Notes: a model not told the origin generated them from the letters alone. Shown: positions 7,840 to 53,499, counted from the stretch's first letter. The stretch: DNA of 64,000 nt from an uncultured Chloroflexia bacterium (GCA_963713975.1 OY970218.1:1920001-1984000); one strand, 5' to 3'. Program-made: numbers and translations.

Positions 7840-8676
7840 ATGACGGCCCTGCCGCCCCTGCGCATCCGGGTCCGGCTGTTCGCGATGCAGCGCGAGACGG
7901 CGGGCATGAAGGAGCTGCGGCTGGAGGTGCCGCTGGGCGCGACCGTGGATGATGCGTGGTCCGCGGTGGTCGAGGTGGTGCCCGCGCTTGCGCCCGGCCG
8001 TCCATCGCTGCGATTTGCCGTCAACGGCGACTACGCGGACCCGGACCGGCCCCTGGCGGACGGTGACGAGATCGCCTGCATCCCGCCGGTGAGCGGCGGC
8101 TCCGGAGAGGACGAGACGGCACCCGCGGGCGACGAGGGCCCGAACGTCCGTCGCCGCATCCTCGAGATTCGCGAGGTGGCGTTGGGCAGCGAGCTGGCTG
8201 CTGAGCTCGCCGACCGCCTGGCGACGAACGAGGATGGCGGCGTGGTGGTCTTCCTGGGCCGCACGCGAGTCACGCCCGGAACGCCGGCCCCAGGGCAGGA
8301 GGCGGAGGCCGCCCGTCATGCGGGCCGCGCGGTCACGGGCCTGGACTACGAGGTCTTTGAGCCGATGGCCGTATCCGTCCTGGACGCGATCGCCGACGAG
8401 ATCGAGGCACGGTTCGGCGTCCGGCGGCTGGCGATCGTCCACCGGGCCGGTCCCGTGCCGCTGGGTGACACGTCCGTCCTGGTCGTGGCCGTCGCGCCGC
8501 ACCGTGACGCGGCCTTCGCGGCTGCCCGGTACGCCATCGACGAGACCAAGGCCCGGGCCCCGATCTGGAAGGCCGAGCAGTTCGCGGACGGCCAGGTGTG
8601 GATCGGTGACGTGGTCCGGACCGGTCCCCCAGGGGAGCCTGCCCCGTCCCGGGATCCGGGCAACACGACGGCGTAG
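7840..8676 (+). CDS. Molybdopterin synthase MoaD-MoaE fusion protein
   Basis: N-terminal VRLFA...AVNG.Y...IPPVSGG (MoaD). C-terminal GGVVVFLG.TR, LDYE, IVHR.G, HR.AAF, KARAPIWKAE (MoaE). GGAGG RBS. Confidence 0.9.
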   Translation: MTALPPLRIRVRLFAMQRETAGMKELRLEVPLGATVDDAWSAVVEVVPALAPGRPSLRFAVNGDYADPDRPLADGDEIACIPPVSGGSGEDETAPAGDEGPNVRRRILEIREVALGSELAAELADRLATNEDGGVVVFLGRTRVTPGTPAPGQEAEAARHAGRAVTGLDYEVFEPMAVSVLDAIADEIEARFGVRRLAIVHRAGPVPLGDTSVLVVAVAPHRDAAFAAARYAIDETKARAPIWKAEQFADGQVWIGDVVRTGPPGEPAPSRDPGNTTA

Positions 8677-8746
8677 CCCGATCGTCTCACCGTCTGTCGC
8701 CCGGTTGACCGGTCGCGGCACGGGCACCGGGCGCCATACTGCGCAC

Positions 8747-10344
8747 ATGCAGCTGCTCGGGGACGCGTCGGCCCTGGAGGATCTCCGGTCGCGTGCGACC
8801 GCGGTGGCCTCCGCGTGGGGTGCCACCGCCGCCACCTTCACCACCATCGGCCAGGAGCGCGCGATCCTCCGGCTGTTCGGCGTCGGGGGGCTGGATCGGG
8901 CCGGTCGGCCGCTGGCCGCCGAGGTCGTGGACCGCTACCTTGCCCCGGATCCACGCCGGCTTGCCGGGGGCGTGGCGCTGCCGTTCGCAATGGCCCTGGC
9001 CGAGTACGACCTTGCGCCCCAGGAGCTGGCCCTGGAGATCACGGCCGGCAACGTCGACCTGGGCCTGGAGGCCGAGCTCCTGACGGAGCCGGACCGGCGG
9101 GCGATCGCTGTCGCCAATGCCGTCGCGCTCGCGCGCTCCGCGATGGAGCGGGTCGATGCCAACCGCACGGCACGCAGGGAGCTTCTCGGGCTCCTCGGCG
9201 ATCCGCCCAGGCCGTGGGTCGGGATGTCGCTCGCGGCACCGGCCATCGTCGATGCGCTGGACGAGGCCCGCCGCGCCATTGATGCCGGCGTGGAGCTGAT
9301 CTGGATCGACGTGCCGCCGAGCCGTGAGCTGTCGGAGCTGCGTGCCCGCGGCGGGGGCCCGATTGATGGCTGGCACGCCGCGCCGTCCTCGCGCGGCGGC
9401 CTCGAGGGCCACGATCCACAGGCGCAGCCCATCCCGACGGGCGCCCAGCGCGCCATCTCTGTCCTGCGGAGGTTCGTGGACGAGGCAGGCGCACGTCGCC
9501 GCGGGTACGTGCGGCTCATGACCGCGTCCCAGCACCTCGCGGCGCCGGACCAGGCGGTGGTGGCAGCGTTCGAGCGGATAGACCTCGTGGTTGCGGATCC
9601 GATCCGGGAGATCGTGACCGGGCGGGTCGACCCCGACCGGGCACTTGCGGACCACGCCTTCGCTCACCGCCTGCTGGCTCGTGCGGGCTCCCGGGTGCTC
9701 GTGCCCGCGGGACCGCTGCTCGTGGCCCCGGACCTCGCCAGCGGGGTGCCGTCCGACTCGGCCACCCGGTCGGGCCGGGCGCTCGCGATGCAGCTGCTGA
9801 CCGTCGCACTCGCGCGGCGGGACGGACTGCCCCCGATTCGATCGTGGTGGGTGCGCTGCCGGACTGGCTCGTGGACGAGCCCGGGGCGCCTGTGCATGCC
9901 GCAACCGAGGTGGCATTGCGGCGGGCGCTTCTGCCCGGCCACCCGCTGGCCTTCCTCGAGCCGCCACTGGCGGCGGATGCCGCGACCACCTGGAACGCCC
10001 TGGTGGCGGCGATCCTGCCGGATGCCGGTGACGTGGACCTTGTCCTGCGGCAGGCGACCGATACGCCCGGGCCGGCCGCGGCCACGACCAGAGCGGCCGC
10101 CGCCGTCGCGTCGAGCCTGCGCCGGGTCCGAACCGCACCTGCCCTGGAGGGCGAGGCCCTCGACCACGCCGCGCGCGTGGTTGCTGCCGCGGCCGGCACG
10201 CTCGCGTTGCTCGGGGACTCGGGCTGGCGATCGTTGGTCGACCAGCCGCTCGGCGTCGAGGCGGGTGGCCTGGGGGCGGATGCCGTGGCCGAGCGGACGG
10301 AGGCATTCGACCCACTGGCGGTCGAGGTGACGACAGCCGCCTGA
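8747..10344 (+). pseudogene. Lysine 5,6-aminomutase alpha-subunit (KamD)-like protein, divergent, with a frameshift at ~9830 (true pseudogene or sequencing error)
   Basis: TTIGQERAILRLFGVGGLD..GRPL, PQELALEI..GNVDL, YVRL and FERID resemble the KamD TIM barrel. The coding frame changes at the 5-C run 9830-9834 and continues as DSIVVGALP... to TGA 10344. Confidence 0.7.
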
Positions 10345-10510: not shown

Positions 10511-11926
<1,416 letters not shown>

Positions 11927-13630: not shown

Positions 13631-13665
13631 CAACGATCGTCGACCCGTCCCCTGAGGTGTCCCCG

Positions 13666-14325
13666 ATGCGCTCCCAGGCACTCGCCCTGCTCGCTGCCGG
13701 CCTCCTGCTCGCCACCGCCGCCGTCCCCGTCCTGGCCAAGGAGGGCGTGGAGGCGCGTCTCGACGCCCCGATCGGCATGGATACGCCGGGGGGCACCGAG
13801 CTCCTCGTCGGGATGACGGTCACCGCGCCCGACGGTGACACGACGGTTCCCGTCGTGGGGACGCCCATGTACCTCCGGCTCACTGGTCGCGACGGATCCT
13901 CGACCCGTGCCGCTGGGGCCGTCGAGGGGAAGCCGGGCCACTACGTGATGCGGATCGAGGTCCCCGCAGGCGGAGCACGGGCGGTCGAGATCGGCATCCA
14001 TGGCACCAGCGACCTGCCCGTCATCGTTGCTGGCGAGGTGCTGGTCTTCGGTGGGGTCACGGCGTCCACGGCGCAGGTCGCCCCGGCGCCCGTTCCGGCC
14101 CTCACGCCGTTCCCGAGAGCCTCGGCCGTCGCTCCCGCCGTCATCGCCCCGGTTGTGGCCGGCGAAGCCCCTGTCTCGTCCGTGGTCGAGCCCACCGCAC
14201 CGGGGCCCCTCGTTGCGGGGTTGCTCGCGCTGGCCGTCGTGCTCGGGCTGGGCCTCCTGGTCCTGGCGCGCCGTTCCCGTCGCCCGCCGCCGACCATCCT
14301 CCCGGACCAGGCTCCTGGCGGCTGA
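13666..14325 (+). CDS. Exported protein with signal peptide, Pro/Ala linker and C-terminal TM anchor
   Basis: MRSQALALLAAGLLLATAAVPVLA signal, C-terminal hydrophobic helix followed by RRSRR, GAGGT RBS. Confidence 0.7.
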   Translation: MRSQALALLAAGLLLATAAVPVLAKEGVEARLDAPIGMDTPGGTELLVGMTVTAPDGDTTVPVVGTPMYLRLTGRDGSSTRAAGAVEGKPGHYVMRIEVPAGGARAVEIGIHGTSDLPVIVAGEVLVFGGVTASTAQVAPAPVPALTPFPRASAVAPAVIAPVVAGEAPVSSVVEPTAPGPLVAGLLALAVVLGLGLLVLARRSRRPPPTILPDQAPGG

Positions 14326-14340
14326 CGGGCCGCCCTGCGC

Positions 14341-14940
14341 GTGACGATCGACGGGGCGGACGAGACCGGTGGCCGCGAGGCACGCCTGGTCCGCCGGGCT
14401 CAGGACGGTGACCACAGTGCCTACGGTGAGCTGGTGACGATCCACCAGACGGCAGCCTTCCGGGTCGCGTTCCTGCTGCTCGGCTCCGCCCCCGATGCGG
14501 AGGACGCGGCCCAGGACGGGTTCGTGCGTGCTCACGCCGCAATCGCGCGCTTCCGTGAAGGCGAGCCGTTCCGGCCGTGGCTGCTCGCCATCGTGGGCAA
14601 CGAGGCGCGCAACCGGCGTCGCGCCCGTGGCCGCCGCGAGGGGATGCTCGGACGGGCAATGTCCGCGTTCCGGGCCGGCGAGGTGGCGGCGACCGGCGGA
14701 CCGGAACGGCTCGTGCTCGCTGGTGAGACCCACGCCGAAGTCCGGGATGCGGTGGCGTCGCTCGACGACGGCGAGCGACATGTGGTCGCGTGCCGCTATC
14801 TCCTCGGGCTGTCCGAGGCCGAGACGGCCGCTGCGCTCGGGATCCCGGTCGGGACGGTGAAGTCGCGGCTCCACCGGGGCCTGCGCCGCCTGCGAGATCG
14901 GCTCGGGCCAGCGATGCGCCCGGCGGGAGACGTCCGATGA
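14341..14940 (+). CDS. ECF RNA polymerase sigma factor
   Basis: AEDAAQD.F, FRPWLLAI..N (region 2); LS.AETAAALGIPVGTVKSRLHRG (region 4). Confidence 0.92.
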   Translation: MTIDGADETGGREARLVRRAQDGDHSAYGELVTIHQTAAFRVAFLLLGSAPDAEDAAQDGFVRAHAAIARFREGEPFRPWLLAIVGNEARNRRRARGRREGMLGRAMSAFRAGEVAATGGPERLVLAGETHAEVRDAVASLDDGERHVVACRYLLGLSEAETAAALGIPVGTVKSRLHRGLRRLRDRLGPAMRPAGDVR

Positions 14941-15701
14941 CAGACCGTGCGCTGACCCCCGACCCTGGCCTCGAGGCCCTGCTGCGCGCCGCGGCCACCG
15001 GCGTCATGTGGCCGGCGACCCCCGACCTGCGTCCGGCCGTGCTCGCCGCGATCGACGCGCAACCGGTGGGGACCACAGCGCCCCCGTCGCGGCGCCGGAC
15101 CATCGTCCGCGCGCTCGTCCTCGCGCTGCTCGGGCTCCTGGTCCTGGCCGGCGTGGCCACGGCGCTCGGCTACCGGCTGCCCGGCCTCGACATCGTATTT
15201 GTGGAGCACCTGCCGCCTGCTGGTGCGGGACTGGAGCTGGGCTCGGAGATCACGCTGGCCGAGGCACGGGCCGTAGAGCTGCCGCGCGTCCTCGTCCCCG
15301 GCGGGCTGCCGGAGCCCGAGACGGCCTTCGTGCTCGGAACCGGTGACCGGCGCATCGTGACGCTGGCCTGGCGCGCTGCGGCGGGGGAGCCCGTGCTGGC
15401 CGGGACCGACCTCTCGCTGGCGATCATGGCGGTGCCGGGTCGGACCGACGAAGGCTTCCTGACCAAGCTACTCGGGCCGGGGACCGGCATCGATCCGGTC
15501 GACGTGGACGGCGACCCAGGCTGGTGGATCTCCGGTCTGCCCCACGATCTGCTCGTCCAGCGCCCCGACGGCACGGTCGGCATGGTCACCTCGCGCCTCG
15601 CGGGCGACACGCTCGTGTTCACCCGCGACGGCACGCTCTACCGTCTCGAATCCGCCCTTGGCCGCGACGCGACGCTGGCGATCGCCCGGTCGCTTGGCTG
15701 A
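14937..15701 (+). CDS. Putative single-pass anti-sigma factor
   Basis: ATGA overlap with the sigma gene; short cytoplasmic N-terminus, one TM helix and an extracytoplasmic domain. Confidence 0.65.
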   Translation: MTDRALTPDPGLEALLRAAATGVMWPATPDLRPAVLAAIDAQPVGTTAPPSRRRTIVRALVLALLGLLVLAGVATALGYRLPGLDIVFVEHLPPAGAGLELGSEITLAEARAVELPRVLVPGGLPEPETAFVLGTGDRRIVTLAWRAAAGEPVLAGTDLSLAIMAVPGRTDEGFLTKLLGPGTGIDPVDVDGDPGWWISGLPHDLLVQRPDGTVGMVTSRLAGDTLVFTRDGTLYRLESALGRDATLAIARSLG

Positions 15702-15723: not shown

Positions 15724-17190
15724 CTATGCGATCCCGGCCGGAGTCCCCGGCAGCGCCTCCCCGAGGCCGTACGGCGCCCCGGCCGCGCGGACGCGGGCGA
15801 CCATGCCGGAGGCCACGGCCGGGTCCAGGTCCGGGACGACGTGCGCCGCCATGATCTCCTCGACCCGCACGCGGGCCCGTCCGTAGGCGTCGAGCCCGCC
15901 TGCGTCCAGCCAGGCCCGGCGCGAGCTGCGGTCGATGACCTTCGAGGGCAGGAACTGCTCGGAGCGGAACAGCTTGCGGGTCTCCTGGAGCTCCAGGAAC
16001 CGGCCCTCGGGCCCGGCGGCCTCGAAGAAGCCCGTGGCGAGGGTCTCGGTCGGCGTGGCCACGCCCCGCAGGAGCCGCTGGACCATCCCGATCATGTCGG
16101 CGTCGATGACCAGCTTCTCCGCGCTCTGGGCGAGCAGGAAGTCCAGCATCCCGGGACCGGAGATCATGTCGATCCCCGCCAGGCCGCCGATGAGCGCGGT
16201 CATGCCGCTCTCGAGGCCTGCCTGCGCATCGATGACCTTGGCGTCGGTCGCGCCAAGGTAGGCGTGGCAGGGCATCCCCAGCGACTTGCCGACCGCCGCG
16301 TAGCCCGCGTCAATCATGGCCGTCTCCACGGCGCCCATGGGTGTCGATCCCGAGCGCATGTCCACGATGGTCGGCGCCCCACCCCAGACGATGGGGGAGC
16401 CGGGCTCGGCGAGCTGGTGGAGCACGATCCCGGCCAGCGTCTCCGCCGCATGCTGGACGATCGACCCGATGAGCGTGACCGGTGCCGCGACGCCCGCCAG
16501 CGGCATCGAGATCAGCTCGGTCGGGACGTGGGCCCGTGCCAGGTCCATCACGTTGCGGCATGCGAACTCGGACCAGGTGAGGGGCGGTGACGGGCAGACG
16601 TCGAAGACGGCGCGCGGCTTCTCGGCCAGGGCATCCCGGCCACCGGCGTCGAGCGCCAGCAGGTCGATCATCACGGACGAGCCGCGCGGGGTGAAGGCGC
16701 CGGTGACGACGGGCTTGCCGGAGTTGACCAGGCACACGAACAGGCGGTACAGGTCGCCGATCTCGGTCGGGACGTCGTGGGCCACGATGGAGGTCGAGAC
16801 GGCGTCGTACGCAGGCAGCGCGTCCGCGACACGCACGATCCGGGCCAGGTCGGCGGCCCGTGACTGGCGGGTGTCGAGCGTCTCCGGGTCCAGGACCTGG
16901 ACGCCGGAGGAACCGGGATCGAAGTGCACGACGCCCTGGCCGTAGCGCACGGCGGGGGCGCCGGCCCGGTCGTACAGGTTGAACGCCGCGGGCGCGGAGT
17001 CCAGGGCGCGGCGGACCATCGCCTCGCCGATGGCGACCCGGTCACCGTCGGCAGTGGCGCCGTGGGCCACGAGGAGGTCGATCGCCTCGGGCTCCTCGAC
17101 CTTGATGCCGGGGCGCTGCAGCAGCTGCAGCGCCTCGTCGACGACGCGGTCGATCAGCGAGGGATCGAGGAGCTCGAAACGGGGTCGCAT
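15724..17190 (-). CDS. Trimethylamine:corrinoid methyltransferase (MttB) superfamily protein, non-pyrrolysine, #1
   Basis: PSPPL, G..APVTL.G, AE.LAG..L.QL..PG.P, DMR.G, TDAK..DAQAG.E, GPGML. No in-frame TAG. Confidence 0.9.
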   Translation of the reverse strand: MRPRFELLDPSLIDRVVDEALQLLQRPGIKVEEPEAIDLLVAHGATADGDRVAIGEAMVRRALDSAPAAFNLYDRAGAPAVRYGQGVVHFDPGSSGVQVLDPETLDTRQSRAADLARIVRVADALPAYDAVSTSIVAHDVPTEIGDLYRLFVCLVNSGKPVVTGAFTPRGSSVMIDLLALDAGGRDALAEKPRAVFDVCPSPPLTWSEFACRNVMDLARAHVPTELISMPLAGVAAPVTLIGSIVQHAAETLAGIVLHQLAEPGSPIVWGGAPTIVDMRSGSTPMGAVETAMIDAGYAAVGKSLGMPCHAYLGATDAKVIDAQAGLESGMTALIGGLAGIDMISGPGMLDFLLAQSAEKLVIDADMIGMVQRLLRGVATPTETLATGFFEAAGPEGRFLELQETRKLFRSEQFLPSKVIDRSSRRAWLDAGGLDAYGRARVRVEEIMAAHVVPDLDPAVASGMVARVRAAGAPYGLGEALPGTPAGIA

Positions 17191-17256
17191 CGGGTTGTCT
17201 CCGGGATGGGGCGAAGAGGTTGCTTCCCGCCGGTCCAGCCGACGCCGGCGGGCGGT

Positions 17257-18729
17257 TCAGGCCGCGCCGACGCCGGCCCTGGCCGCATGGGTGGCGATCA
17301 ACCGGCGGAGCTCGGCATCGAGCGCCTCGTCCAGCGGTTCCGGGCGGTGGTCGCGGAGCAGGGTCCGGGCTCGTTCCAGGGCCTCGCGGTGGTACTTGTC
17401 CGGGTCCGCCTCCCACTGCCCATACGGGCGGCGGTCGAGATAGCGCGGCTTCCACAGGCCGCGCATCGCCGTGCGCGTGTGGGGCGAGGTGAGGTAGTCG
17501 CCGCCGGGACCGACCTCGGCGATCGCCTCGAGCGCCAGGGACGCGTCGTCCACGGTCACCCCCTCGATCATCTGCGCGACGATCGACGCGATCTCCGTGT
17601 CGAGGATGAGTTGCTCGTAGGACCAGATCCGGGATCCGTGGAGAAGCCCGGCGCCCAACAGCATGTCCGAGCCCACGACGGAGGCCATGAACGCGGACAG
17701 CCCGTTCTCCAGGCCGGCCTGCCAGTCGGAGCGCTTGGCGCCGGTGGCGTAGGCGCCCATCGACAACGGCACCTTGTAGAAGTCGGCCAGCTGGTTCGTG
17801 ACCGCCCCGAACAGGAAGTCCTCGGGACCACCACCGGTGTAGGCGCCGGACCGGAGGTCCATCGCCGTCTGGGCAGCGGCGTAGTAGACGGGTGAGCCCG
17901 GGTACGCGAGCTGCAGCAGCGCCAGCGCCGCGATCACCTCGGCGTTGCCGACGACCAGCGACCCGGCGACGGTGGCCGGACCGCTGAAGGCGCACGACGC
18001 CATCGTCATGTAGCCCACCGGGATGCCGGCCTCGGCCGCGACCAGCCCGGCGTCGATGGCCCCGCCGTCATGGGCAAGCGGGCTGATGGTGCACTGCATG
18101 AGGGACAGGACGGGATGGGCGCGCAAGGCGTCGCGGCCGCCGGCGATGGCCGCGGCCATCTCGATCGCGACCGCGGCCTCCTCGGCCGTGACGATGCTCT
18201 CGGTCTGGACGTGCTTGGTGGAGTTGCGCCAGACGGCCGTGACCTCCTCGAGGGAGCGGCTCTCCGGGTGCACGTCCTGGGCGGACACCGCCACCCAGTG
18301 GAAGGCGATCTCGGGGAGCGCGTCGGCGACGCGCGCGATGTCCCCGACGTCCGCCAGTGCCGACCGGCGGACCTCCAGGGTCCACGGATCCAGGACCTCG
18401 ATCCCGCAGCCGTCGGTGGCGAGGTGGACGTGCTCCCCGTCGAGTGGCAGGTCGAGCTTCGGGTCCCGGGCGCCAAGGGTGTAGGCCGGGGGCGCGGTCT
18501 GCAGCGCGCGCTCGATCATGGCGCCGGGTGCCTTCACGATCCCGGTCGCGCGGTCGACGGTGGCGCCGTGCTCGGCCCAGATGGCCTGGGCCCGCTCCGA
18601 TGGGAAGCGGACGCCGACACGCTCGATGATGTCCAGGGTGGCGGTATGGATGCGGCCGATCGCTGCCGGTGACAGGACCTCGAAGCGTGGCCGGTTGCTG
18701 CCGGCCACGCTGTCCTCTGCGCTGCTCAT
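17257..18729 (-). CDS. MttB superfamily methyltransferase, non-pyrrolysine, #2
   Basis: STKH, ISPL, GPATVAG.L...NAE, MDLRSG, DWQAG.E, VGPGG.YL..PHT. Confidence 0.9.
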   Translation of the reverse strand: MSSAEDSVAGSNRPRFEVLSPAAIGRIHTATLDIIERVGVRFPSERAQAIWAEHGATVDRATGIVKAPGAMIERALQTAPPAYTLGARDPKLDLPLDGEHVHLATDGCGIEVLDPWTLEVRRSALADVGDIARVADALPEIAFHWVAVSAQDVHPESRSLEEVTAVWRNSTKHVQTESIVTAEEAAVAIEMAAAIAGGRDALRAHPVLSLMQCTISPLAHDGGAIDAGLVAAEAGIPVGYMTMASCAFSGPATVAGSLVVGNAEVIAALALLQLAYPGSPVYYAAAQTAMDLRSGAYTGGGPEDFLFGAVTNQLADFYKVPLSMGAYATGAKRSDWQAGLENGLSAFMASVVGSDMLLGAGLLHGSRIWSYEQLILDTEIASIVAQMIEGVTVDDASLALEAIAEVGPGGDYLTSPHTRTAMRGLWKPRYLDRRPYGQWEADPDKYHREALERARTLLRDHRPEPLDEALDAELRRLIATHAARAGVGAA

Positions 18730-18837
18730 GTGTGCCTCCAGCCGGGCACCTGGTGCCCGGCCACGCGTGTGCTCCGGCTCGAGCCCGGGAGCCGGTACCG
18801 TGCGGCGATCGGCGGGACGCCGGCCGCGGTCGTCTGG

Positions 18838-19503
18838 TCAGGCCCCGGCGGCCGCCCCGGAACCCATCAGCCTGCGGGCCAGCGCCACGGCGCCGATGGC
18901 GTCCTCGCTGTACCCGTCGGCGCCGATCTCGGTCGCCCAGCTCTCGCTTGCCGGTGCGCCGCCGACGATCACCTTGACCTTCTGGCTCAGTCCGGCGGCC
19001 GCGAGGGCTTCGACGACGGTCCGCTGCCCGGCCATCGTCGTGGTCAGCAGGGCCGAGACGCCGATGATGTCCGCGTTGTGCTCCCTGGCGGCCTCGACGA
19101 ACCGGTCCGGCGCCACGTCTACGCCCAGGTCATGGACCTCGAAGCCGCTGGTCGAGAGCATCATCCCCACGAGGTTCTTGCCGATCTCGTGGATGTCGCC
19201 CTTGACCGTGCCGATGACGACCCGGCCGACCACGCTGCGCTGGGTGGCCATCTGCTGGAGCACGGGCTCGAGGACGTCCATCGCCTTCTGCATGGCGCGG
19301 GCGGCGAGCATCATGTCAGGCAGGAACAGCTCGCCCTCGGCGAACTGCTCGCCGACGAACGAGAGGCCCGGGACCAGGCCGTTGTCGATCGCGTCGAGCG
19401 GCGGGACGCCGTCGTCCAGGGCCTGCTGGGCAAGGGTGGCGGCCGCCGGCGCGTCCCCGTCGATGACCGCCTGTCGCAGCGCCGCGAACAGCTCGTCGCT
19501 CAT
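18838..19503 (-). CDS. Cobalamin-binding corrinoid protein (MttC/MtbC-like)
   Basis: Cap domain (VG..F..GE.FLP), GTVKGDIHEIGKN (DxHxxG), SALLTTTM, VGGAP. GAAGGAG RBS 8 nt upstream of the ATG. Confidence 0.93.
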   Translation of the reverse strand: MSDELFAALRQAVIDGDAPAAATLAQQALDDGVPPLDAIDNGLVPGLSFVGEQFAEGELFLPDMMLAARAMQKAMDVLEPVLQQMATQRSVVGRVVIGTVKGDIHEIGKNLVGMMLSTSGFEVHDLGVDVAPDRFVEAAREHNADIIGVSALLTTTMAGQRTVVEALAAAGLSQKVKVIVGGAPASESWATEIGADGYSEDAIGAVALARRLMGSGAAAGA

Positions 19504-19544
19504 GTCGTCCACTCCTTCGCCCGGGTCAGCGGGCCTGGTGCTCG

Positions 19545-21023
19545 TCAGGGCTGGGTAGCGGGCCGCGGGCTCGCGGCCGCCCGTTCGAGGATTGCCGTGA
19601 TCTCCTGCTCGACCGCCTCGGGGAGCGGGGGAGCCTGGTGAGAGTCAAGGATCTTGTTCACGCGGGCGGCGGCGCGCTCCCCGAGCGAGGTGCTGCCGTG
19701 GGCCAGCCACGCGCCGTGGCTCGCCCGGTCGATCAGCGTTGGATACCAGCGTTCGCGGTAGTGGTCGAGGGTGTGTTGCGCCTCCAGAAACGATCCGTCC
19801 GGGCCGAGCGCGTCGATCACGTCCAGCGCGAGCGTCTCGGCGTCGATGGCGACCGGCCCGATGGCGGCCCGGATCCAGGCCGCGATCTCGTCGCAGATGG
19901 CCAGCTGGACGAGCGAGCCCGTCAGCCCGGACTCGAGGTACCCGCTGTCGTGGAGCAGGTGGCCGCCCGCAAGCGCATCGACGAGCATCGTCAGCGCGGC
20001 CTCCGCGGCCGCCTGCTGGTCGACCGCCTTGCTGTCGCTGCCGCCGGCGAGGCTGAACATCGGCAGGTCGTAGTGGTGCGCCAGCGAGGGCACCGTGCCG
20101 CGGTGATCCGGCTCCGCGTAGGGGTCGACCATGGTCCGCAGGTCGAGCGCATCGCCGCCAAAGCCGGGGATCACCACCGGCGTGCCTTCGCGCACGAGGT
20201 TGGCGAGGACCAGCCCCACCAGGACCCCTGCGTTGGTGAGCGCGATGTTGCCGGCCGTCGTGACCGGACCCGTGGTGCTGCCGGACGTCACCGGGATCCA
20301 CAGCGCCGGCAGCCCGCGCTCGGCGAGCGTCAGAAGCTTGCGCAGCGAGTCGCCGTTGTGGACGAGCCCACGGGTGACGTTGATGTACAGCGCGATCATC
20401 GGCCGCTCGCGCAGCGCGTCCGCGCCGCCGGCCACGGCCTCGGCCATCGCGATCGCGTCGACCATCGCGTCCACGTCGTAGGTCACCACCACGAGCGGCT
20501 TCGTGGTGTGGCGCAGCATGACCGCCATCTGCTCGCGATCGGCCATGTCCGGCGACACGTCCGACGGCAGGAACATCGACATCCCGAAGTCCATGTTCGG
20601 GAGCGCGTCCACCAGCGTCAGGCCATCGCGCGTGTCCTGGATCGTCGCCTTGCGCCGCTCCCCGGTGCGGTGGTCGATCGCGTTGAGGCAGTCCGAGCCG
20701 GGCCCGAAGTAGACGTTGTCGCCTTCGAGCACGATGCGTGGCATGCCGCCCCGGTCGAACAGCGTGATCGAGCGCTTCGCCACGGACAGCGCCCACTCGA
20801 CCAGTGATCGCGGGACATGGACGCGGCCGTCGTCGGCCACCTGTGCGCCGGCACCGTGCAGCCGCTCGACCGCCTCGGGATCGTGCAGCACCACGCCGGT
20901 CCGCTCCAGGATCGAGATGCTCGCCTCGTGCACGAGCCGGCAGTCGTCCGCTGTCAGGCGGTCGTAGCGCGGCGACCGCCGGGCGCGCGCAGCCTCGGAT
21001 GCATTCGGGGCAAACGAAACCAC
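19545..21023 (-). CDS. MttB superfamily methyltransferase, non-pyrrolysine, #3
   Basis: VHEASISILERTGV, TTKP, GPVT.AG, SDSKAVDQQAAAE, HD.GYLESG, GP.GSFL...HT. Inferred GTG start at 21023 after GGAGG. Confidence 0.88.
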   Translation of the reverse strand: MVSFAPNASEAARARRSPRYDRLTADDCRLVHEASISILERTGVVLHDPEAVERLHGAGAQVADDGRVHVPRSLVEWALSVAKRSITLFDRGGMPRIVLEGDNVYFGPGSDCLNAIDHRTGERRKATIQDTRDGLTLVDALPNMDFGMSMFLPSDVSPDMADREQMAVMLRHTTKPLVVVTYDVDAMVDAIAMAEAVAGGADALRERPMIALYINVTRGLVHNGDSLRKLLTLAERGLPALWIPVTSGSTTGPVTTAGNIALTNAGVLVGLVLANLVREGTPVVIPGFGGDALDLRTMVDPYAEPDHRGTVPSLAHHYDLPMFSLAGGSDSKAVDQQAAAEAALTMLVDALAGGHLLHDSGYLESGLTGSLVQLAICDEIAAWIRAAIGPVAIDAETLALDVIDALGPDGSFLEAQHTLDHYRERWYPTLIDRASHGAWLAHGSTSLGERAAARVNKILDSHQAPPLPEAVEQEITAILERAAASPRPATQP

Positions 21024-21157
21024 GGACACCTCCCTGCGATGGAGTCGGCCGATCAAGCGTCCTGCCCGGGAGTCCGGGGGCGACAGGGCGGAAGGTCCCG
21101 TCGAAATGGGCCGAGGGACTGTCCGGTCGCTTGCACGGGCACCCGAGACTGGAGAGG

Positions 21158-22777
21158 ATGCCCCATGTGATCCACGGGTCCGAGCGGCGCCCGCTCGTCC
21201 CCGGACGCCTCCTGTACGACGAAGCAGACCAGCTCTCGGTGATCGTGCCCGCCTCGTGCAAGCGCACGGGTCGCTGTCACGAGTGCGTGGTCGAGGTGCG
21301 GACCGGGGCCGACCAGCTGTCGCCACGGACGCCGGAGGAATCCTTCCTGGGTGCCGGGTTCCGGCTCGCCTGCCAGGCGTGGGTCGAGCGCGCAGAACGG
21401 GACCTGGAGTTCGCAGTCCTGCGCCGACGGCTGCGGATCCTCCTGGCGCCCGAGGACCGCGGCGGCTCGCGGGACCTGGACCCGGTCGTCACGATCGAAG
21501 ACGGCCGATACCGCACGGACGATGGCGCGGATCTCGGCGTGGCGATGGGGGCGGCGATCGGGGTCGCGCTCGACGTCGGCACCACCACCGTGGTCCTCGA
21601 GCTGGTCGATCTCGCGACCGGCGGCGTCCTTGCGGTCGCCGCCCTGGAGAACCCGCAGCGCTTCGGCGGCTCCGACGTGATGACCCGGATCTCCTACGAC
21701 GCCGAGCTCCCCGGCGAGCTGCGCCAGGCGCTCCGCCGCGCCGTCAACCACGAGCTCAAGCGGCTGTGCGCGGAGCTCGGGCTGGACCGACGTCAGCTGG
21801 TGGACGCCTACGTCGTGGGCAACTCCACGATGCGAGACATGTTCTTCGGCCTGGACGTCGGCCCCATCGGCCGTCTCCCGTACCGGTCCGTGACGGAGAC
21901 CGACGTGCGGACGGGCCGGGCGGAGACGACCTCGATCGTGCGGCGGGCCCACGAGATCGGCCTGCTGGTCAATCCCCAGGCCCGTGTCACCGGCGGCCCG
22001 CTGATCGCAAGCCACGTCGGCGCGGATGCGGCCGCGGACCTCGTGGCCGTGGAGGCGGTGGGGCGCGGCGGGTCGTTCCTCCTGGTCGACATCGGGACCA
22101 ACAGCGAGATCGTCGTGTCCGACGGGTCCCGGCTGCTGGCCGCGTCGAGCCCGGCCGGTCCTGCGTTCGAGGGTGGCGGGGTGCGCTACGGGATGCCGGG
22201 CGCCGACGGGGCCATCGAATCGGTTCGCATCACGGACGGGCGGTTCCAGGTCAGCATCATCGGCGATCTCCCGCCCGAGGGGATCTGCGGGTCCGGGCTG
22301 GTCGACCTGCTGGCCGAGCTCCGCCGTGCGGGCTGGATGACCAACCGCGGCACGTTCGCGGACAAGGCCCACGAGATCACGGTCGAGCCGGAACGCCCCA
22401 TCACGCTATCGCGGTCCGATGTCGGACACCTCTCCATCGCGAAGGCCGCCACGGCCGTCGGCCAGCGCGTTCTCCTGCGTCGGCTCGGCATGGAGCCCTC
22501 GGACCTCGACCGGGTCTACCTTGCCGGGGGCTTCGCGAACGCCATCGACGTCTCGTCCGCGATCGACATCGGACTGCTGGTGCCCGTGGCGCCCGAGCGG
22601 GTGGTCCGCGTGGGCAACGCGTCGATCGGTGGTGCCCGTACCCTTCTGGTGAGCCGGCGCCGCCGCGCCGAGCTCGAGTCCCTCGTGCGCCGGATCGAGC
22701 ACGTGGAGCTCGAGTCGGAGTCCGACTTCTTCGATCTGTTCACCGACGGCTGCCTGTTCGAGCCGATCACCGTCTGA
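21158..22777 (+). CDS. ATP-dependent reductive activator of corrinoid enzymes (RACE/RamA-like, ASKHA fold, N-terminal 2Fe-2S)
   Basis: C...G.C..C and RLACQ ferredoxin motifs; DVGTTT, NPQ.FG.DV..RI, DIGTN.EI, AGPAFEG, GICGSG, LAGGF, VGNAS. Confidence 0.9.
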   Translation: MPHVIHGSERRPLVPGRLLYDEADQLSVIVPASCKRTGRCHECVVEVRTGADQLSPRTPEESFLGAGFRLACQAWVERAERDLEFAVLRRRLRILLAPEDRGGSRDLDPVVTIEDGRYRTDDGADLGVAMGAAIGVALDVGTTTVVLELVDLATGGVLAVAALENPQRFGGSDVMTRISYDAELPGELRQALRRAVNHELKRLCAELGLDRRQLVDAYVVGNSTMRDMFFGLDVGPIGRLPYRSVTETDVRTGRAETTSIVRRAHEIGLLVNPQARVTGGPLIASHVGADAAADLVAVEAVGRGGSFLLVDIGTNSEIVVSDGSRLLAASSPAGPAFEGGGVRYGMPGADGAIESVRITDGRFQVSIIGDLPPEGICGSGLVDLLAELRRAGWMTNRGTFADKAHEITVEPERPITLSRSDVGHLSIAKAATAVGQRVLLRRLGMEPSDLDRVYLAGGFANAIDVSSAIDIGLLVPVAPERVVRVGNASIGGARTLLVSRRRRAELESLVRRIEHVELESESDFFDLFTDGCLFEPITV

Positions 22778-22784
22778 GGTAGCG

Positions 22785-24551
22785 ATGAGCCCGTCCTCGA
22801 GGTCCCGCACCCGAGCCCACGATGCCGCAGCCGCAGAGGCCGCAGCCGCAGGGGCCGCAGCCGCAGAGGCAGACGCCGCACCGTCCGCCGACCTGCCCAC
22901 CACCGGCCCGGGCGCCCTGCGCCGCGTGCTGGGCTCCGAGGCCGGCTTCGCCACGATCGTGGAGCTCGTGCCCTGGGCGGGCGAGCTGGGCGATGCCCGC
23001 GGCCAGAAGCCCCTGCGCATGGCCGCGGAGCTGGCGGGCAACCCGCGGGTCACCGCCCTCTCGGTCACCGACAACGCGGGCGGCCACGCGAGGCTCTCCC
23101 CCGACGCCCCGGGCGAGGCGCTGCGGGGCCTCGGCCACGACGTCATCGTCCACATCGCCTGCCGCGACCGCAACCGCAACGGCATGCAGTCCCTGGGCTG
23201 GGACCTCCTCTCGCGCGGGCTCACCAGCGTCCTCGCTATCAGCGGCGACTACCCGGTGGCTGGCTACGAAGGCCTGCCCAAGCCCGTGTTCGACATCGAC
23301 TCGGTGGCCCTGCTCGAGCTGCTCCACAGGCTGGGCATGGAGGCCGTGGCCAAGGCCGCCAGCGACGGCGCCCCCGACCCCGAGCAGCACTGCTTCTTTC
23401 TCGGCTGCGCGATCGACCCCTTCAAGCGCCTCGAGCGGGACCTCGTCCCCCAGTTCCTCAAGCTCGCTCTGAAACAGCGCTCGGGCGCCGACTACGCGAT
23501 CACCCAGGTCGGCTATGACGCGCACCGCCAGGACGTGCTGCTGCGCTGGATGCGCCGCGAGTCGATCTCGATGCCCGTGGTCGGCAACGCCTACATCCTG
23601 TCAGGCCCCGTCGCCCGTGCCTTCAACGCAGGGAGGGTGCCCGGCTGCGTGGTCACGGACGACCTGCTGCGGGTGGTCGAGCGCGAGGCAGCGTCCTCCG
23701 ACAAGGGGCGAGCCTTCTTCCTCGAGCTTGCCGCCAAGCAGCTGGTCGTGTCCCGGGGCCTGGGCATGCGGGGCATCTACATCTCCGGGCACCGGGATGC
23801 CGCCGAGGTGGGCCGCGTGCTCGAGATGGCCGACGCCCACGACCCTGCCGACTGGCGCTCGCTGGTGAAGGACGTCTCCTTCGGCCTGCCCGGCGCCTTC
23901 GAGCCGTTCGAGCCCGACGGTGCGGGGCTGTCCACCGACGAGCTCAACCGCACCTGGGCCCGCAGCCTCACGCCGCAGGCTCGCACGCGTGCCCGCCGCG
24001 ACGTCGACCCCTTCTACAAGCTCAACCGCACTGTCCACGGGCGCGTCTTCGAACCCGGGACCCCGGGCTTCCGCGCCTGGGCGGCCGTGTACGGGAGGAT
24101 CGAGGCGCTCCACGTGGGCAAGCCGCTCCACGTGTTCGAGCAGGCGGTCAAGGTCCCGCTCTACGACTGCCGCGACTGCGGCGACTGCAGCCTGCCCGAC
24201 CTCGCCTACCTGTGTCCCGAGAGCCACTGCCAGAAGAACCAGCGCAACGGCCCCTGCGGCGGTGCAAAGGACGGCATGTGCGAGGTCCCTGGGCACACCT
24301 GCGTCTGGGCCGATGCCTATCGCCGGCTCAAGCCCTATGGCGAGGAGCGCACGATGCTCGAGCGCCCGGTCGTGGTCCAGGACAACGACCTGCGCCGGAC
24401 CAGCGCCTGGGGCAACACCTTCCTCGGCCGCGACCACTACGCCCGGCGGGCCGAGGTCCAGGCGACCCTGGCCGTCGCGTCCGCACCACCGACCACCCCC
24501 GCCACGGCCGCCACCCCAGTGTCCACTCCCGAGAAAGGACCCCGCTCGTGA
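22785..24551 (+). CDS. metF: Methylenetetrahydrofolate reductase (MetF) fused to a C-terminal Cys-rich MetV/MTHFR_C domain
   Basis: VTDN, HIACRDRNR, LAISGD, K...GADYAITQ.GYD; C-terminal CRDCGDC...CP...C.K..RNGPCGG...CEV...CVW. Confidence 0.85.
   Translation: MSPSSRSRTRAHDAAAAEAAAAGAAAAEADAAPSADLPTTGPGALRRVLGSEAGFATIVELVPWAGELGDARGQKPLRMAAELAGNPRVTALSVTDNAGGHARLSPDAPGEALRGLGHDVIVHIACRDRNRNGMQSLGWDLLSRGLTSVLAISGDYPVAGYEGLPKPVFDIDSVALLELLHRLGMEAVAKAASDGAPDPEQHCFFLGCAIDPFKRLERDLVPQFLKLALKQRSGADYAITQVGYDAHRQDVLLRWMRRESISMPVVGNAYILSGPVARAFNAGRVPGCVVTDDLLRVVEREAASSDKGRAFFLELAAKQLVVSRGLGMRGIYISGHRDAAEVGRVLEMADAHDPADWRSLVKDVSFGLPGAFEPFEPDGAGLSTDELNRTWARSLTPQARTRARRDVDPFYKLNRTVHGRVFEPGTPGFRAWAAVYGRIEALHVGKPLHVFEQAVKVPLYDCRDCGDCSLPDLAYLCPESHCQKNQRNGPCGGAKDGMCEVPGHTCVWADAYRRLKPYGEERTMLERPVVVQDNDLRRTSAWGNTFLGRDHYARRAEVQATLAVASAPPTTPATAATPVSTPEKGPRS
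22824..22868 (+). repeat. 3 x 15-bp tandem repeat GCCGCAGCCGCAGRG (Ala-rich N-terminus of MetF)
   Basis: Read directly; encodes AAAAE AAAAG AAAAE. Confidence 0.85.
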
Positions 24552-25588
24552 AGCTCGACCGCGCCGGATCGCCGTTCCAGATCGTCGGCGAGAACATCCA
24601 TGCCACCCGGGTCCTGAAGCGGGCCGGCAAGCACGCGGTGGAGCTGGATGACGGCACGACCGGGATCGCGTTCGTGACCGGCGACGGGACGGCGCTCGTC
24701 CTGCCCGTCCACCCTGACCTCGCCGCCGCCCGCGACTTCGCAGCGGGCAAGATCAAGCACGTCCAGAGCGCCGTACGCTGGGGACTTGACGGCGGCGAGC
24801 AGGCGGACACTGCAGCCGCCTACGTGCGCGCCCTTGCCGCCCGTCAGGAGGCCACCGGCGCCGACTGGCTGGACCTCAATGCGGACGAGGTCTCGGCCGA
24901 CGCCGGGCTGCGCGCCGCGGCCATGGCCTGGCTGGTCACCATCGTCGAGGCGACCGCAGTGGTGCCCGTCTCGATCGACTCATCCGACGTGGGCGTGCTC
25001 GCCGCCGGTGTCGCGGCATCCACCCAGCCGCGGGGCCGGCTGCTGCTCAACTCCGCGTCGCTCGAGCGGCCCGACGTCCTCGACCTCGCCGCGGAGACCG
25101 GCTGTGCCGCGATCCTCGCCGCGAGCGGCCTGGGCAGCATGCCCGCCGACGCGGAGGAGCGCGTCGCCAATGCGGTCCGCCTGATCGAGCTGGCCATGGC
25201 CCGCCAGATCGCACCGGACCTGCTCTACGTGGACCCGCTGGTCCTGCCCGTCGCCGTGACGGGGGAGGCCCCGGCGCATGTGCTCGAGGCGGCCCGCCAG
25301 CTTCGCGCGGAATACGGCGACACGATCCACCTGACAGGCGGCCTGTCCAACGTCTCGTTCGGCATGCCGGCCCGCAAGCTGCTCAACGACACGTTCATTG
25401 ACCTCGCGGCCGAGGCCGGCATCGACAGCGGGATCATCGATCCAGTGGCGTCGGACCTCGTGCGGGTGTTCGCCGCGGACCGCGACACCGAGGCGTACCG
25501 GCTGGCCGCGGACATGCTCCTTGGGCGTGACCCGTTCGGGGGCGAGTACGTGCGCGCCTTCCGCGAGGGGCGGCTCGGAGCCGAGTAG
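24548..25588 (+). CDS. Methyltetrahydrofolate:corrinoid methyltransferase (AcsE/MtgA-like pterin-binding domain)
   Basis: IVGENIH, GADWLDLN, SIDS, LLNS, DPLVLP, GGLSNVSFGMP.R..LN..F, IIDP. GTGA overlap with metF. Confidence 0.87.
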   Translation: MKLDRAGSPFQIVGENIHATRVLKRAGKHAVELDDGTTGIAFVTGDGTALVLPVHPDLAAARDFAAGKIKHVQSAVRWGLDGGEQADTAAAYVRALAARQEATGADWLDLNADEVSADAGLRAAAMAWLVTIVEATAVVPVSIDSSDVGVLAAGVAASTQPRGRLLLNSASLERPDVLDLAAETGCAAILAASGLGSMPADAEERVANAVRLIELAMARQIAPDLLYVDPLVLPVAVTGEAPAHVLEAARQLRAEYGDTIHLTGGLSNVSFGMPARKLLNDTFIDLAAEAGIDSGIIDPVASDLVRVFAADRDTEAYRLAADMLLGRDPFGGEYVRAFREGRLGAE

Positions 25589-25597
25589 CTCCGGCGC

Positions 25598-26341
25598 TCA
25601 GCCGGCGGGGACGGCCTTGACCACCCCGTCGTCGTAGCTCATCGCCAGCCGCTCGCCCGGCTGGAGCACGAGCACGTCCTCGTTCCAGTCGCCGTCGATC
25701 AGGCGTCGGAGCAGCACCAGGTTGCCCTCGATGCGCTCGAACGCCCAGCCGCGACGGTCCGCCTCGTCGCGCGCCGCACCCTCGGACGTGGCTTCGTCTG
25801 TCACGCCCATTGCGACGAACGCGGCGCGGCCGTAGTGCGTGCGCCAGCCGCCCATGACCTCCATCAGGTAGTCCGCGTTGTCCTCGCCGTACTTCGCGAC
25901 GTACTCGGCGCGGACCTCCTCGATCCCGGCGTCCGTGTCCGAGCCGACGGCAAGGCCACCCACGCTGGGCCGGTAGCCGTCGTTGCGCTCGAGCTGGTCC
26001 GCCACGTACCAGTAGGTGGCGACCTTCCCGTGTTCCTCGAGGTACCGCTCGCGTGCTCCAAGGAACAGCGTGATGCAGTCGTGGGCCCGGGGGAGGATCA
26101 CGGGCACGCCCCGCGCCTCGATCCCGGCCGTGGCGCCACCGCACAGCCCGTAGCCCAGCACGATGGCCTCGGCGCTGGCCGGTGCGTCGTCGATCGCCTC
26201 CTGGAGCTGGTCCCGCAACGACTTCGGCTCGTTGTGCAGGCCGCGCTCGAACAGCCGGATGTCCACGACATGCGGGGAGCGGGCGGCGCACAGGTAGACC
26301 GGACGCGCGAGGACGTCACAGGCAATGGCGTAGAGACGCAT
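25598..26341 (-). CDS. DUF1638 family protein (corrinoid-cluster associated)
   Basis: IAC.V, GLH..P, LGYGLCG, PRAHDCI.LFLG, G....L..L..GDW motifs. Confidence 0.8.
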   Translation of the reverse strand: MRLYAIACDVLARPVYLCAARSPHVVDIRLFERGLHNEPKSLRDQLQEAIDDAPASAEAIVLGYGLCGGATAGIEARGVPVILPRAHDCITLFLGARERYLEEHGKVATYWYVADQLERNDGYRPSVGGLAVGSDTDAGIEEVRAEYVAKYGEDNADYLMEVMGGWRTHYGRAAFVAMGVTDEATSEGAARDEADRRGWAFERIEGNLVLLRRLIDGDWNEDVLVLQPGERLAMSYDDGVVKAVPAG

Positions 26342-46601: not shown

Positions 46602-47341
46602 TGCCCCAGCCCGCGTGGCTTCCCCACTACCGCCAGATCGAGCTGGCGCTGCGTGACCGGCTGCCGACGCTGCGTCCGGGCGAACGACTGCCATCGGACA
46701 GCGACCTGTGCCGCGAGTTCGGGGTCAGCAGGATGACGGCGCGCAACGCGATGCAGCGCCTGGCGGACGATGGTCTCGTGCAGCGGATCCCCGGGCGCGG
46801 CACGTTCGTCATCGAGCCGCCGTCTCACCGGCACGCGGACCGCCTGATGGCGTTCTCGCACGAGATGGAGCGACGGGGGCTCACGCCAGGGTCGCGGCTG
46901 CTCGCTCGCGAGATCCGCCCCGCGACGCCCCACGACGCGCAGTCGCTCGGTGTCCACCTCGGCGACCCGGTGGTCCTCGTCCGTCGCCTGCGGATGGCCG
47001 ACGGCGTGCCGATGGCGATCGAGACGGCGGTCCTCGTCCGCCGCACCGCGGATGCGGTGATGCTCTCAGACCTTGAATCCGGGTCAATGCACGAGGCGCT
47101 CGACAGGGCAGGCCTGCAGCTCCGGCGTGGCATGGCGACGATCACGTCCGAGGCGGCCACGTCAGAGGATGCGGGTCTCCTGGCCGTGCAAATCGGCGAT
47201 CCGCTCCTCGTGGAGCGTCGCGTCATCGAGGATGCCGCCGGTCGGCGCGTGGAGGCCACCGAGTCCCGCTATCCGGGTGACCGCTACGCGCTCGATGTCC
47301 GCTTCGATGTGGACGACCGGCCCCAGGACGCAGCGTCGTGA
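46598..47341 (+). CDS. GntR/HutC-family regulator with UTRA domain
   Basis: [23 protein letters not shown]-terminal UTRA. Confidence 0.9.
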
Positions 47342-53311: not shown

Positions 53312-53499
53312 GACGGGTTTTCTCCTGCGAGTGGCGGGCACGCGTCGCCACGTCCCGATGCTGGCGGTCCGGGGCCGTGGCCGCAATGCCAGAGCGGGTC
53401 GATGAAGTGGCAGAAGCGGCCACGGGTACCCGGTCGGGGTACCGGAAACGCTCCAAGTGGCCCTGTCCGATACGGCTGGACGGCTGGCATCGTCGAGCC

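Follow-up and report, generated by a model that had tools for sequence, protein, structure and literature searches.

The window analysed here, a stretch of 64,000 nucleotides with a G+C content of 72%, covers bases 1,920,001–1,984,000 of the single-contig 3.62 Mb genome of an uncultured Chloroflexia bacterium (GCA_963713975.1, OY970218.1). The host is a soil-type, Limnocylindria-like Chloroflexota, predicted to be aerobic-capable from the COX1 (heme-copper oxidase subunit I) found in its genome, for which completeness was estimated at 92%. Eight genes at 15724–26341 of the window encode three MttB-family methyltransferases (MttB1, MttB2 and MttB3), a corrinoid protein (MtgC), a RACo-type activase, a methylenetetrahydrofolate reductase (MTHFR)-MetV-type fusion, a pterin-binding methyltransferase (MtgA) and a DUF1638 protein (Table 1). 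The genes were located by listing open reading frames (ORFs), by plotting third-position G+C for each frame and by searching with Pfam and NCBIfam profiles, and all domain assignments of the cluster genes were above the Pfam cut-offs. An earlier note on this DNA had described the same eight genes with their strands in the same 15724–26341 interval, including a DxHxxG corrinoid protein, and was borne out in all of these by the ORF and profile searches. The plus-strand genes were tightly packed, with 7 nt between the RACo stop and the MTHFR-MetV start and a GTG start of the pterin-binding methyltransferase overlapping the MTHFR-MetV stop codon. The listed ORF of MttB3 extended to 21326; its coding signal and homology started near 21029, and the divergent intergenic region is presumed to contain promoters in both directions.

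Table 1. Features of the methyl-transfer gene cluster, with positions counted from the first base of the window
Feature	Position	Strand	Basis
MttB1, non-pyrrolysine (non-Pyl) MttB-family first methyltransferase (MT1), 488 aa	15724–17190	-	PF06253, 287.7 bits
MttB2, non-Pyl MttB-family methyltransferase, 490 aa	17257–18729	-	PF06253, 300.6 bits
MtgC-like cognate corrinoid protein, 224 aa, cap and Rossmann B12 domain, DIHEIG	18838–19512	-	PF02310, PF02607
MttB3, non-Pyl MttB-family methyltransferase, about 494 aa	19545 to about 21029	-	PF06253, 284.8 bits
Divergent intergenic region between MttB3 and the activase operon, about 130 bp	21030–21157	.	Frame plot, sequence
RACo-type ATP-dependent reductive activase	about 21158–22777	+	Fer2, Raco_middle, RACo_C_ter
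MTHFR fused to a Cys-rich MetV-type C-terminal domain (DUF5981)	22785–24551	+	PF02219, PF12225
MtgA/MtgD/AcsE-like second methyltransferase (MT2), pterin-binding TIM barrel	about 24548–25588	+	Pterin_bind, 68.6 bits
DUF1638 protein, 247 aa, convergent with the pterin-binding gene	25598–26341	-	PF07796, 119.3 bits

Conservation of the cluster in related genomes had been proposed as a check in the earlier note, and the eight-gene order was found repeatedly. Recurrence of this order across dozens of related genomes places the cluster well outside what chance grouping would give. Among 65 loci with an MttB2 ortholog of at least 55% identity, and counting only loci with room, MtgC lay directly upstream of MttB2 in 53 of 61 and MttB1 directly downstream in 49 of 59. 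Two of the ten loci scored as lacking MttB1 (L061 and L070) do have an adjoining MttB1 that failed the spacing rule, and L044 and L045 have MtgC as split matches. MttB3 was found upstream in 29 of 57 loci, and RACo, MtgA and DUF1638 were all inside the locus in 25 of 51. Orthologs were also counted in an even sample of 301 Chloroflexota genomes, the host genome (G000) included, with identity thresholds of at least 61% for MttB2, 55% for MttB1 and 51% for MttB3. MttB2 was present in 16 genomes, MttB1 in 17 and MttB3 in 5, nearly all from two families, and related genomes are not independent observations. Both MttB2 and MttB1 occurred in 15 genomes, on the same contig and adjacent in every case; one genome had MttB2 without MttB1 and two had MttB1 without an MttB2 ortholog. 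Judged by these gene orders, MtgC-MttB2-MttB1 is the conserved core and MttB3 is an optional add-on.

Such constant adjacency of MttB2 and MttB1 could mean that the two are halves of an obligate heteromeric enzyme, a heterodimer replacing the homodimer of MtgB and MttB. In the solved MttB-MttC complex, each corrinoid protein touches both subunits of the MttB dimer, and the C-terminal loop of one subunit lines the active site of its partner (PMC9842639, PMC13080624); a division of labour between unlike subunits is therefore conceivable. However, both paralogs retain the full barrel, the [ST]-x-[AS]-K region and invariant signatures of their own, as expected of two active enzymes. Besides the two genomes carrying MttB1 without its partner, four genomes of one genus in a second Chloroflexota family (G043, G258, G067 and G019) carry tandem duplicates of MttB1 directly downstream of MttB2. 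An obligate heteromer is thus improbable in our assessment.

All three MttBs were full-length members of PF06253, covering positions 23–497 of the 500-position model with scores above the curated cut-off of 25 bits (Table 1). All scored below the 525-bit cut-off of the MttB equivalog model TIGR02369 (MttB1: 367, MttB2: 429, MttB3: 333). Translation with table 11 gave uninterrupted ORFs with no stop codon and hence no in-frame TAG, in agreement with the earlier note, which had also placed small residues at the pyrrolysine (Pyl) site (GATDAK, YATGAK and GGSDSK). The motifs in this region were LGATDAK in MttB1, AYATGAK in MttB2 and AGGSDSK in MttB3, and phmmer alignment to Methanosarcina barkeri MttB (7xcl) assigned Ala, Ala and Gly, respectively, to the position of Pyl334. 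In a 167-sequence MAFFT alignment, this position of all three MttBs fell into a single column. Tyr364 of MttB, reported to be required for Pyl activation (PMC9842639) and equivalent to H348 of MtgB, was replaced by Ser in MttB1, Leu in MttB2 and His in MttB3. In lacking UAG, in replacing Tyr364 and in scoring under the TIGR02369 cut-off, the three differ from MttB of the Methanosarcina MttB-MttC-RamA system, a member of the same family. The predicted end of the methyl acceptor chain also differs, being tetrahydrofolate (THF) here and coenzyme M in Methanosarcina.

In an Rfam scan of the window for RNA elements, cobalamin riboswitches included, PYLIS_3 alone reached its gathering score (42.7 bits vs. 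38), at 16152–16251 on the minus strand within MttB1; a COG3860 match (E 0.27) was below threshold. Positions 1–3 of the PYLIS_3 model (UAG) fell on a GCG (Ala) codon. As there is no UAG to recode, we read the match as coding-sequence conservation rather than a working PYLIS, which suggests that what the model detects is for the most part conserved coding sequence of mttB, so that homologs without Pyl can also score. Several in-frame stops reported by the tblastn and genome searches were considered as Pyl codons and rejected. Those in the homologs at L025, L034, L054 and L061 lay at the C-terminal end of the match, off the Pyl column, and match coordinates placed those in G086 and in MttB4, one of four further MttBs of the host genome, at the C-terminal end as well.

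The mutual identity of the three MttBs was 30%–33%, and their identity to the four other MttBs of the genome was 26%–42%. MttB2 had more than 3500 homologs, the best 120 of which shared 67%–91% identity. The 79 loci taken from species-representative genomes and the closest MttB2 homologs all belonged to metagenome-assembled genomes (MAGs), classified as Chloroflexota, Chloroflexia, Candidatus Limnocylindria/Limnocylindrales and Anaerolineales, with a few Gemmatimonadota included for a 44%–46% paralog. A midpoint-rooted FastTree phylogeny of 166 sequences, 160 of them MttB homologs from these loci, was built without the characterised enzymes and after removal of one junk match (L014, which had several stops and 27% identity). 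MttB1 (52 members and 3 distant ones), MttB3 (31) and MttB2 (60) each formed a clade of their own (local support 0.986–1.0), the last accompanied by a 14-member sister group at 44%–48% identity. The three enzymes described in the earlier note as visibly dissimilar thus fall into three deep clades.

Each orthogroup carried its own signature at the positions corresponding, in order, to Y97 and R312 of MtgB, Pyl334 of MttB, and H348 and F356 of MtgB. MttB2, the most conserved of the three, had C/S/A/L/S, with L in 59 and each other residue in all 60 of its 60 orthologs, and its motif ATGAK replaces the x-D-[AS]-K usual in the family. The MttB3 signature S/F/G/H/G was kept at each position by 31 of 31 orthologs. 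The MttB1 signature S/H/A/S/L was slightly more variable (S 55, H 55, A 49, S 56 and L 52 of 56 orthologs). The paralogs are three old, separately kept lineages, as would be expected if each enzyme had a fixed specificity that differs from those of the others. No literature characterising the three orthogroups was found in a search that left most subscription journals outside its scope.

One structural reference for the three MttBs was MtgB of Desulfitobacterium hafniense (2qne, 9yce), which was their best or near-best PDB match and shares with them the family, the length, a non-Pyl TIM barrel and the conserved D-[AS]-K motif region that follows the Pyl position. The phmmer scores against MtgB, M. 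barkeri MttB (7xcl) and the Sinorhizobium meliloti homolog (4yyc) were 204, 210 and 125 bits for MttB1, 228, 227 and 139 bits for MttB2, and 196, 144 and 131 bits for MttB3. MttB1 and MttB2 therefore matched the Methanosarcina enzyme on par with MtgB, and all three scored poorly with the S. meliloti homolog. In MtgB, Y97 and F356 hold the quaternary nitrogen through cation-pi contacts and R312 and H348 hold the carboxylate, and R312 is stated to be conserved in MtcB, MtpB, MthB and MtyB (PMC13080624). The corresponding residues were S/H/S/L in MttB1, C/S/gap or L/S in MttB2 and S/F/H/G in MttB3, so that none, none and one (His) of the four MtgB residues were kept. The aromatic pair Y97/F356 was absent from all three MttBs, as was the equivalent of Arg312, the column reading H, S and F; none of the seven MttBs of the genome had Arg in this column. 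Tight grouping with MtgB and retention of its substrate residues, which the earlier note had named as the outcome that would contradict its reading, was not what emerged: scores within an orthogroup were 650–1000 bits, compared with the 196–228 bits against MtgB. The loss of Arg312 in the three paralogs and the lack of Arg in all seven MttBs thus speak against glycine betaine and make carboxylated betaines in general less probable; judging from these alignments, the three enzymes probably use compounds other than glycine betaine, perhaps ones outside the carboxylated betaines altogether.

The partner proteins were recognisable at the family level. The corrinoid protein reached the cut-off of TIGR02370 (215.7 vs. 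215.3 bits), contained PF02607 and PF02310, and had DIHEIG as its DxHxxG motif. It missed the glycine-betaine-specific MtgC models (NF047995: 232 vs. 310 bits; another: 199.6 vs. 370 bits). The activase consisted of an N-terminal 2Fe-2S domain, a RACo middle domain and an ASKHA C-terminal domain (PF14574: 222.6 bits, PF17651: 120.6 bits, PF00111: 31.8 bits), with the N-terminal cysteines C34/C40/C43/C72 invariant, and scored below the equivalog models for AcsV (262 vs. 800 bits) and RamA (119 vs. 500 bits). The MTHFR of the cluster is the second of two MTHFR matches in the genome and is analogous to MetF2. The MT2 exceeded the PF00809 cut-off of 25.5 bits (Table 1) and was below that of NF005719 (180.5 vs. 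259 bits); of the other Pterin_bind matches in the genome, that at 1458 kb (241.7 bits) is probably FolP and the rest falls within the MetH frame.

The same six functional parts constitute the scheme described for Ruegeria pomeroyi and for co-located operons of other Proteobacteria, namely MtgB, MtgC, MtgD, MetF2, RamA and DUF1638, with such operons reported from other marine bacteria and S. meliloti (PMC12478193). Since the part list equals that of the Ruegeria scheme, the mechanism proposed here is one already known in kind, found in both cases in oxygen-respiring bacteria. The present system differs in forming a single divergent cluster within 10.6 kb, in its Chloroflexota host, in having three MT1 paralogs, and in that its substrate is not inferable as glycine betaine. 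Each MttB would accept a methylated substrate of its own, most likely an N-methyl compound, in the pocket of its TIM barrel and would pass the methyl group to the one MtgC-like corrinoid protein in the Co(I) state. The pterin-binding MT2 would move the methyl group to THF, and the MTHFR-MetV-type fusion would oxidise methyl-THF to methylene-THF for assimilation or further oxidation. Cofactor at the Co(II) level would be restored to Co(I) by the 2Fe-2S/ASKHA RACo-type activase, using ATP and aided by DUF1638. The gene set covers every step as well as reductive reactivation, in keeping with the complete module from substrate through Co(I) corrinoid and methyl-THF to methylene-THF proposed in the earlier note. 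That note had also called the cluster self-contained, which is only partly apt: the cluster itself has no transporter, regulator or downstream one-carbon oxidation gene, and it probably also serves four MttBs outside it.

The presence of three MT1 genes around a single corrinoid protein might also reflect stepwise demethylation of one compound through that protein (betaine to dimethylglycine, sarcosine and glycine, or trimethylamine). Among the NCBIfam models, the corrinoid protein matches the glycine-betaine-specific MtgC best, the architecture equals that of the Ruegeria glycine betaine system (PMC12478193), and the very strong MttB2-MttB1 adjacency is as for consecutive steps. However, the MtgB betaine-binding residue set is kept by none of the three MttBs, and a fixed three-step chain is unlikely because about half of the loci lack MttB3, which was found in 5 of the 301 genomes compared with 16–17 for MttB2 and MttB1. 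All characterised non-Pyl members named in PMC13080624, PMC12155760 and PMC8604678 act on quaternary amines, and MtgB did not use dimethylglycine, sarcosine, trimethylamine, dimethylamine or monomethylamine (PMC13080624). Tertiary and secondary amines need activation, which has been proposed to come from pyrrolysine in MttB (PMC9842639). A stepwise pathway is accordingly possible, and we consider it unlikely.

DUF1638 had been treated as a bystander in the earlier note, a view at odds with published reports that it is needed for, or induced with, corrinoid-dependent methyl transfer. In the R. pomeroyi scheme, DUF1638 and RamA were induced on N-osmolytes (PMC12478193), and in Phaeobacter inhibens the genes for DUF1638 and a RamA-like protein agreed in fitness pattern with the genes of the split methionine synthase (PMC5764234). 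By analogy, DUF1638 is presumed to be an accessory of corrinoid reactivation. An all-against-all HMMER search yielded 1888 cluster representatives at E ≤ 0.001, and 14 of the best 150 relatives were 915–959 residues long. Domains were scanned in 18 of these 150, all clearly longer than the query (320–959 residues). The eight scanned members of the long class (P0148, P0178, P0180, P0191, P0193, P0216, P0229 and P0249) all had DUF1638 followed by Hydant_A_N and Hydantoinase_A, of the ASKHA ATPase type, with weak similarity to the MutL reactivase. Four shorter relatives began the same architecture, four consisted of DUF1638 alone, one was fused to S-methyl_trans (P0151) and one to GGDEF-HD. Across 92 aligned full-length members, C67, D88, C89 and G95 were invariant and C8, H36 and H87 were at least 90% conserved; the C8/H36/C67/H87/D88/C89 set points to a site for a metal or an Fe-S cluster. 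The confident AlphaFold model (pLDDT 91.9, pTM 0.87) had no Foldseek match in the PDB at E ≤ 0.001, and VIA-align produced middling, generic matches (Z of at most 8.3) to alpha/beta proteins with two lobes, among them LacI/periplasmic binding proteins and racemases of the hydantoin or Asp/Glu type. A predicted complex of RACo and DUF1638 scored 0.00, which is evidence neither way. These domain and model data fit a role beside an ASKHA-type activase without defining that role.

The reported need of the split methionine synthase of P. inhibens for DUF1638 and a RamA-like protein (PMC5764234) also raises the possibility that the unit is chiefly a split, RamA/DUF1638-reactivated methionine synthase of the Phaeobacter/Ruegeria type, passing methyl groups from methyl-THF to homocysteine, with the MttBs as side entries. 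In one Chloroflexota MAG (L048:9283-16693), MtgC-MttB2-MttB1 is followed by the pterin-binding MT2 (MtgA), RACo and a homocysteine S-methyltransferase gene, an arrangement that links the same MT1 pair to predicted methionine formation. The S-methyl_trans fusion of P0151 points in the same direction, as do two stand-alone S-methyl_trans frames (342 and 385 aa) in the host genome, which has further copies within MetH and the MTHFR fusion. However, a single 1336-codon frame of the genome already specifies a complete classical MetH, made up of homocysteine, pterin, B12 and reactivation modules, and the dual role in methionine synthesis described for the Ruegeria system is therefore not required here. 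No homocysteine-binding gene was present in the cluster or in the 25 full-cluster loci, and only a minority of the genomes sampled from the phylum carry the cluster, which is not what an essential biosynthetic enzyme would show. A role chiefly in methionine synthesis is therefore very unlikely.

The host genome contained seven PF06253 matches in total. The four MttBs outside the cluster lie at 665–674 kb, 1.27 Mb away, where a second MttB cluster (G000:C1:661001-681000, L008) comprises a PotD-type ABC transporter, MttB4, MttB5, a DAO-family oxidase, SelD, MttB6 and MttB7; no corrinoid protein, activase or MT2 was found within it. RACo_C_ter, DUF1638 and the MtgA-like pterin-binding protein each occur once in the genome, all in the cluster studied here. 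With one activase, one DUF1638 and one MtgA-like MT2 available, the cluster probably also serves the four distant MttBs, and may supply activation and the exit to folate for all corrinoid systems of the organism. Such sharing resembles that in Eubacterium limosum, where MtpB, MtcB, MtyB and MthB are likewise non-Pyl MttB-family MT1s feeding a corrinoid protein and a THF methyltransferase, and several paralogs with different substrates (proline betaine, carnitine, gamma-butyrobetaine and phosphocholine) use one common partner set (MtqC/MthC and MtqA/MthA). The hosts of these enzymes are strict anaerobes, unlike the present one, and the enzymes are stated to keep Arg312 (PMC13080624), whereas the three MttBs do not.

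Four more small corrinoid proteins are encoded in the genome. Two have URO-D (MtaA/CmuA-like) genes nearby, around 1275 kb and 1522 kb (L089 and L090), one adjoins methylmalonyl-CoA mutase, and one adjoins a protein of 430 aa for which Pfam gave no match at E ≤ 1e-5 (G000:C1:3468001-3469946; L088:5202-7147), beside sugar-isomerase-like and GFO/IDH/MocA genes. From its position, this protein could be an unrecognised corrinoid-dependent methyltransferase. A further URO-D/MtaA-CmuA-like gene lies inside the window at 47338–48492 (+), adjoining a GntR/UTRA regulator and a NagA-like amidohydrolase. This gene content suggests that several corrinoid methyltransferase systems share one activase in the organism. 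In the second MttB cluster, a molybdopterin oxidoreductase was also observed in two same-strand pieces (87 aa and 504 aa), possibly representing a selenocysteine-containing formate dehydrogenase.

Taken together, these results make it likely that the cluster is a central corrinoid-dependent methyl-transfer unit, that its three MT1s act on different substrates, and that it also serves the distant MttBs. Several points weigh against this interpretation. The residues were mapped through phmmer (pairwise) and MAFFT alignments of sequences sharing about 30% identity; the Y97 column is uncertain by one residue, both candidates being non-aromatic, and in MttB1 the residue just before the F356 column is a Phe. 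The direction of methyl flow through MT1, MT2 and MTHFR and the role of each protein are what we infer from the gene set, since flux is not readable from sequence. Sharing with the distant MttBs was deduced from gene counts in a 92%-complete genome, and three of the four extra corrinoid proteins, near URO-D-type genes or the unassigned protein, could serve these MttBs instead. Furthermore, among 71 flanking ORFs of eight distant loci, no transporter, regulator, substrate-specific or catabolic gene recurred beside the core. These flanks contained PntAB, a GntR/FCD regulator (upstream in two loci), a peptidase and other unrelated genes, and the lack of a recurring neighbour leaves the gene context silent on the substrates.

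None of the genes flanking the cluster on the left or right was kept with it in the loci of related genomes, and the cluster therefore has no transporter or dedicated regulator of its own. To the left, at 13665–15701 (+), a signal-peptide/membrane-anchored Ala/Pro-rich protein, a putative sigma-70/ECF-type factor and a putative membrane anti-sigma protein lie between the cluster and a gene for an MFS transporter; the three proteins had no Pfam match at E ≤ 0.01, and the sigma factor was judged by eye from the translation. Beyond them, the MFS transporter gene follows a tyrosine phenol-lyase gene at 10514–11926 (+) (770 bits vs. the equivalog cut-off of 720.7), which adjoins the gene at 8234–10330 (+) for a protein with a partial lysine 5,6-aminomutase alpha TIM-barrel match, resembling B12 enzymes. 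The right flank contains DUF6855, an unassigned protein and a two-component pair. An OYE/FadH-type flavoprotein at 51140–53386 was considered as a trimethylamine/dimethylglycine dehydrogenase and rejected, as its best NCBIfam matches (mycofactocin-type, bilirubin reductase and BaiCD) were far under their cut-offs. No public sequencing run, RNA runs included, was listed as containing the MttB1-MttB3 stretch.

The machinery and architecture of the unit are already known; by sequence comparison, the new elements are the three divergent MttBs, their invariant or nearly invariant signatures, and the co-inherited MttB2-MttB1 pair, whose signatures match none of the characterised members compared here. 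This pair lacks, in its predicted sequence, pyrrolysine, the carboxylate-binding Arg and the cation-pi aromatic pair. A more far-reaching proposal is that MttB2 and MttB1 are an obligate co-inherited pair, acting as a heterodimer or as consecutive enzymes, and constitute a new functional branch of the MttB superfamily for a kind of substrate so far unreported among non-Pyl members, for example trimethylamine/dimethylamine or some other non-carboxylated methylamine. We rate this as a long shot. If it were true, oxygen-respiring soil and freshwater Chloroflexota would gain a pyrrolysine-independent, B12-dependent methylamine route into the folate pool, and metagenome readings of methylamine turnover and B12 demand in oxic soils would change.

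Non-Pyl MttB homologs are among the most-annotated 'methylotrophy' genes in soil and sediment metagenomes; few of their substrates are known, and all of these come from anaerobes or Proteobacteria. In a floodplain study, mttB was annotated in 17% of MAGs, with Limnocylindria and Anaerolineae among the carriers (PMC11264602). The three signature-recognisable orthogroups and their core would allow annotators to drop the labels 'trimethylamine methyltransferase' and 'glycine betaine methyltransferase', and would offer enzymologists three well-delimited targets for substrate screens, together with the cognate corrinoid protein, MT2 and activase.

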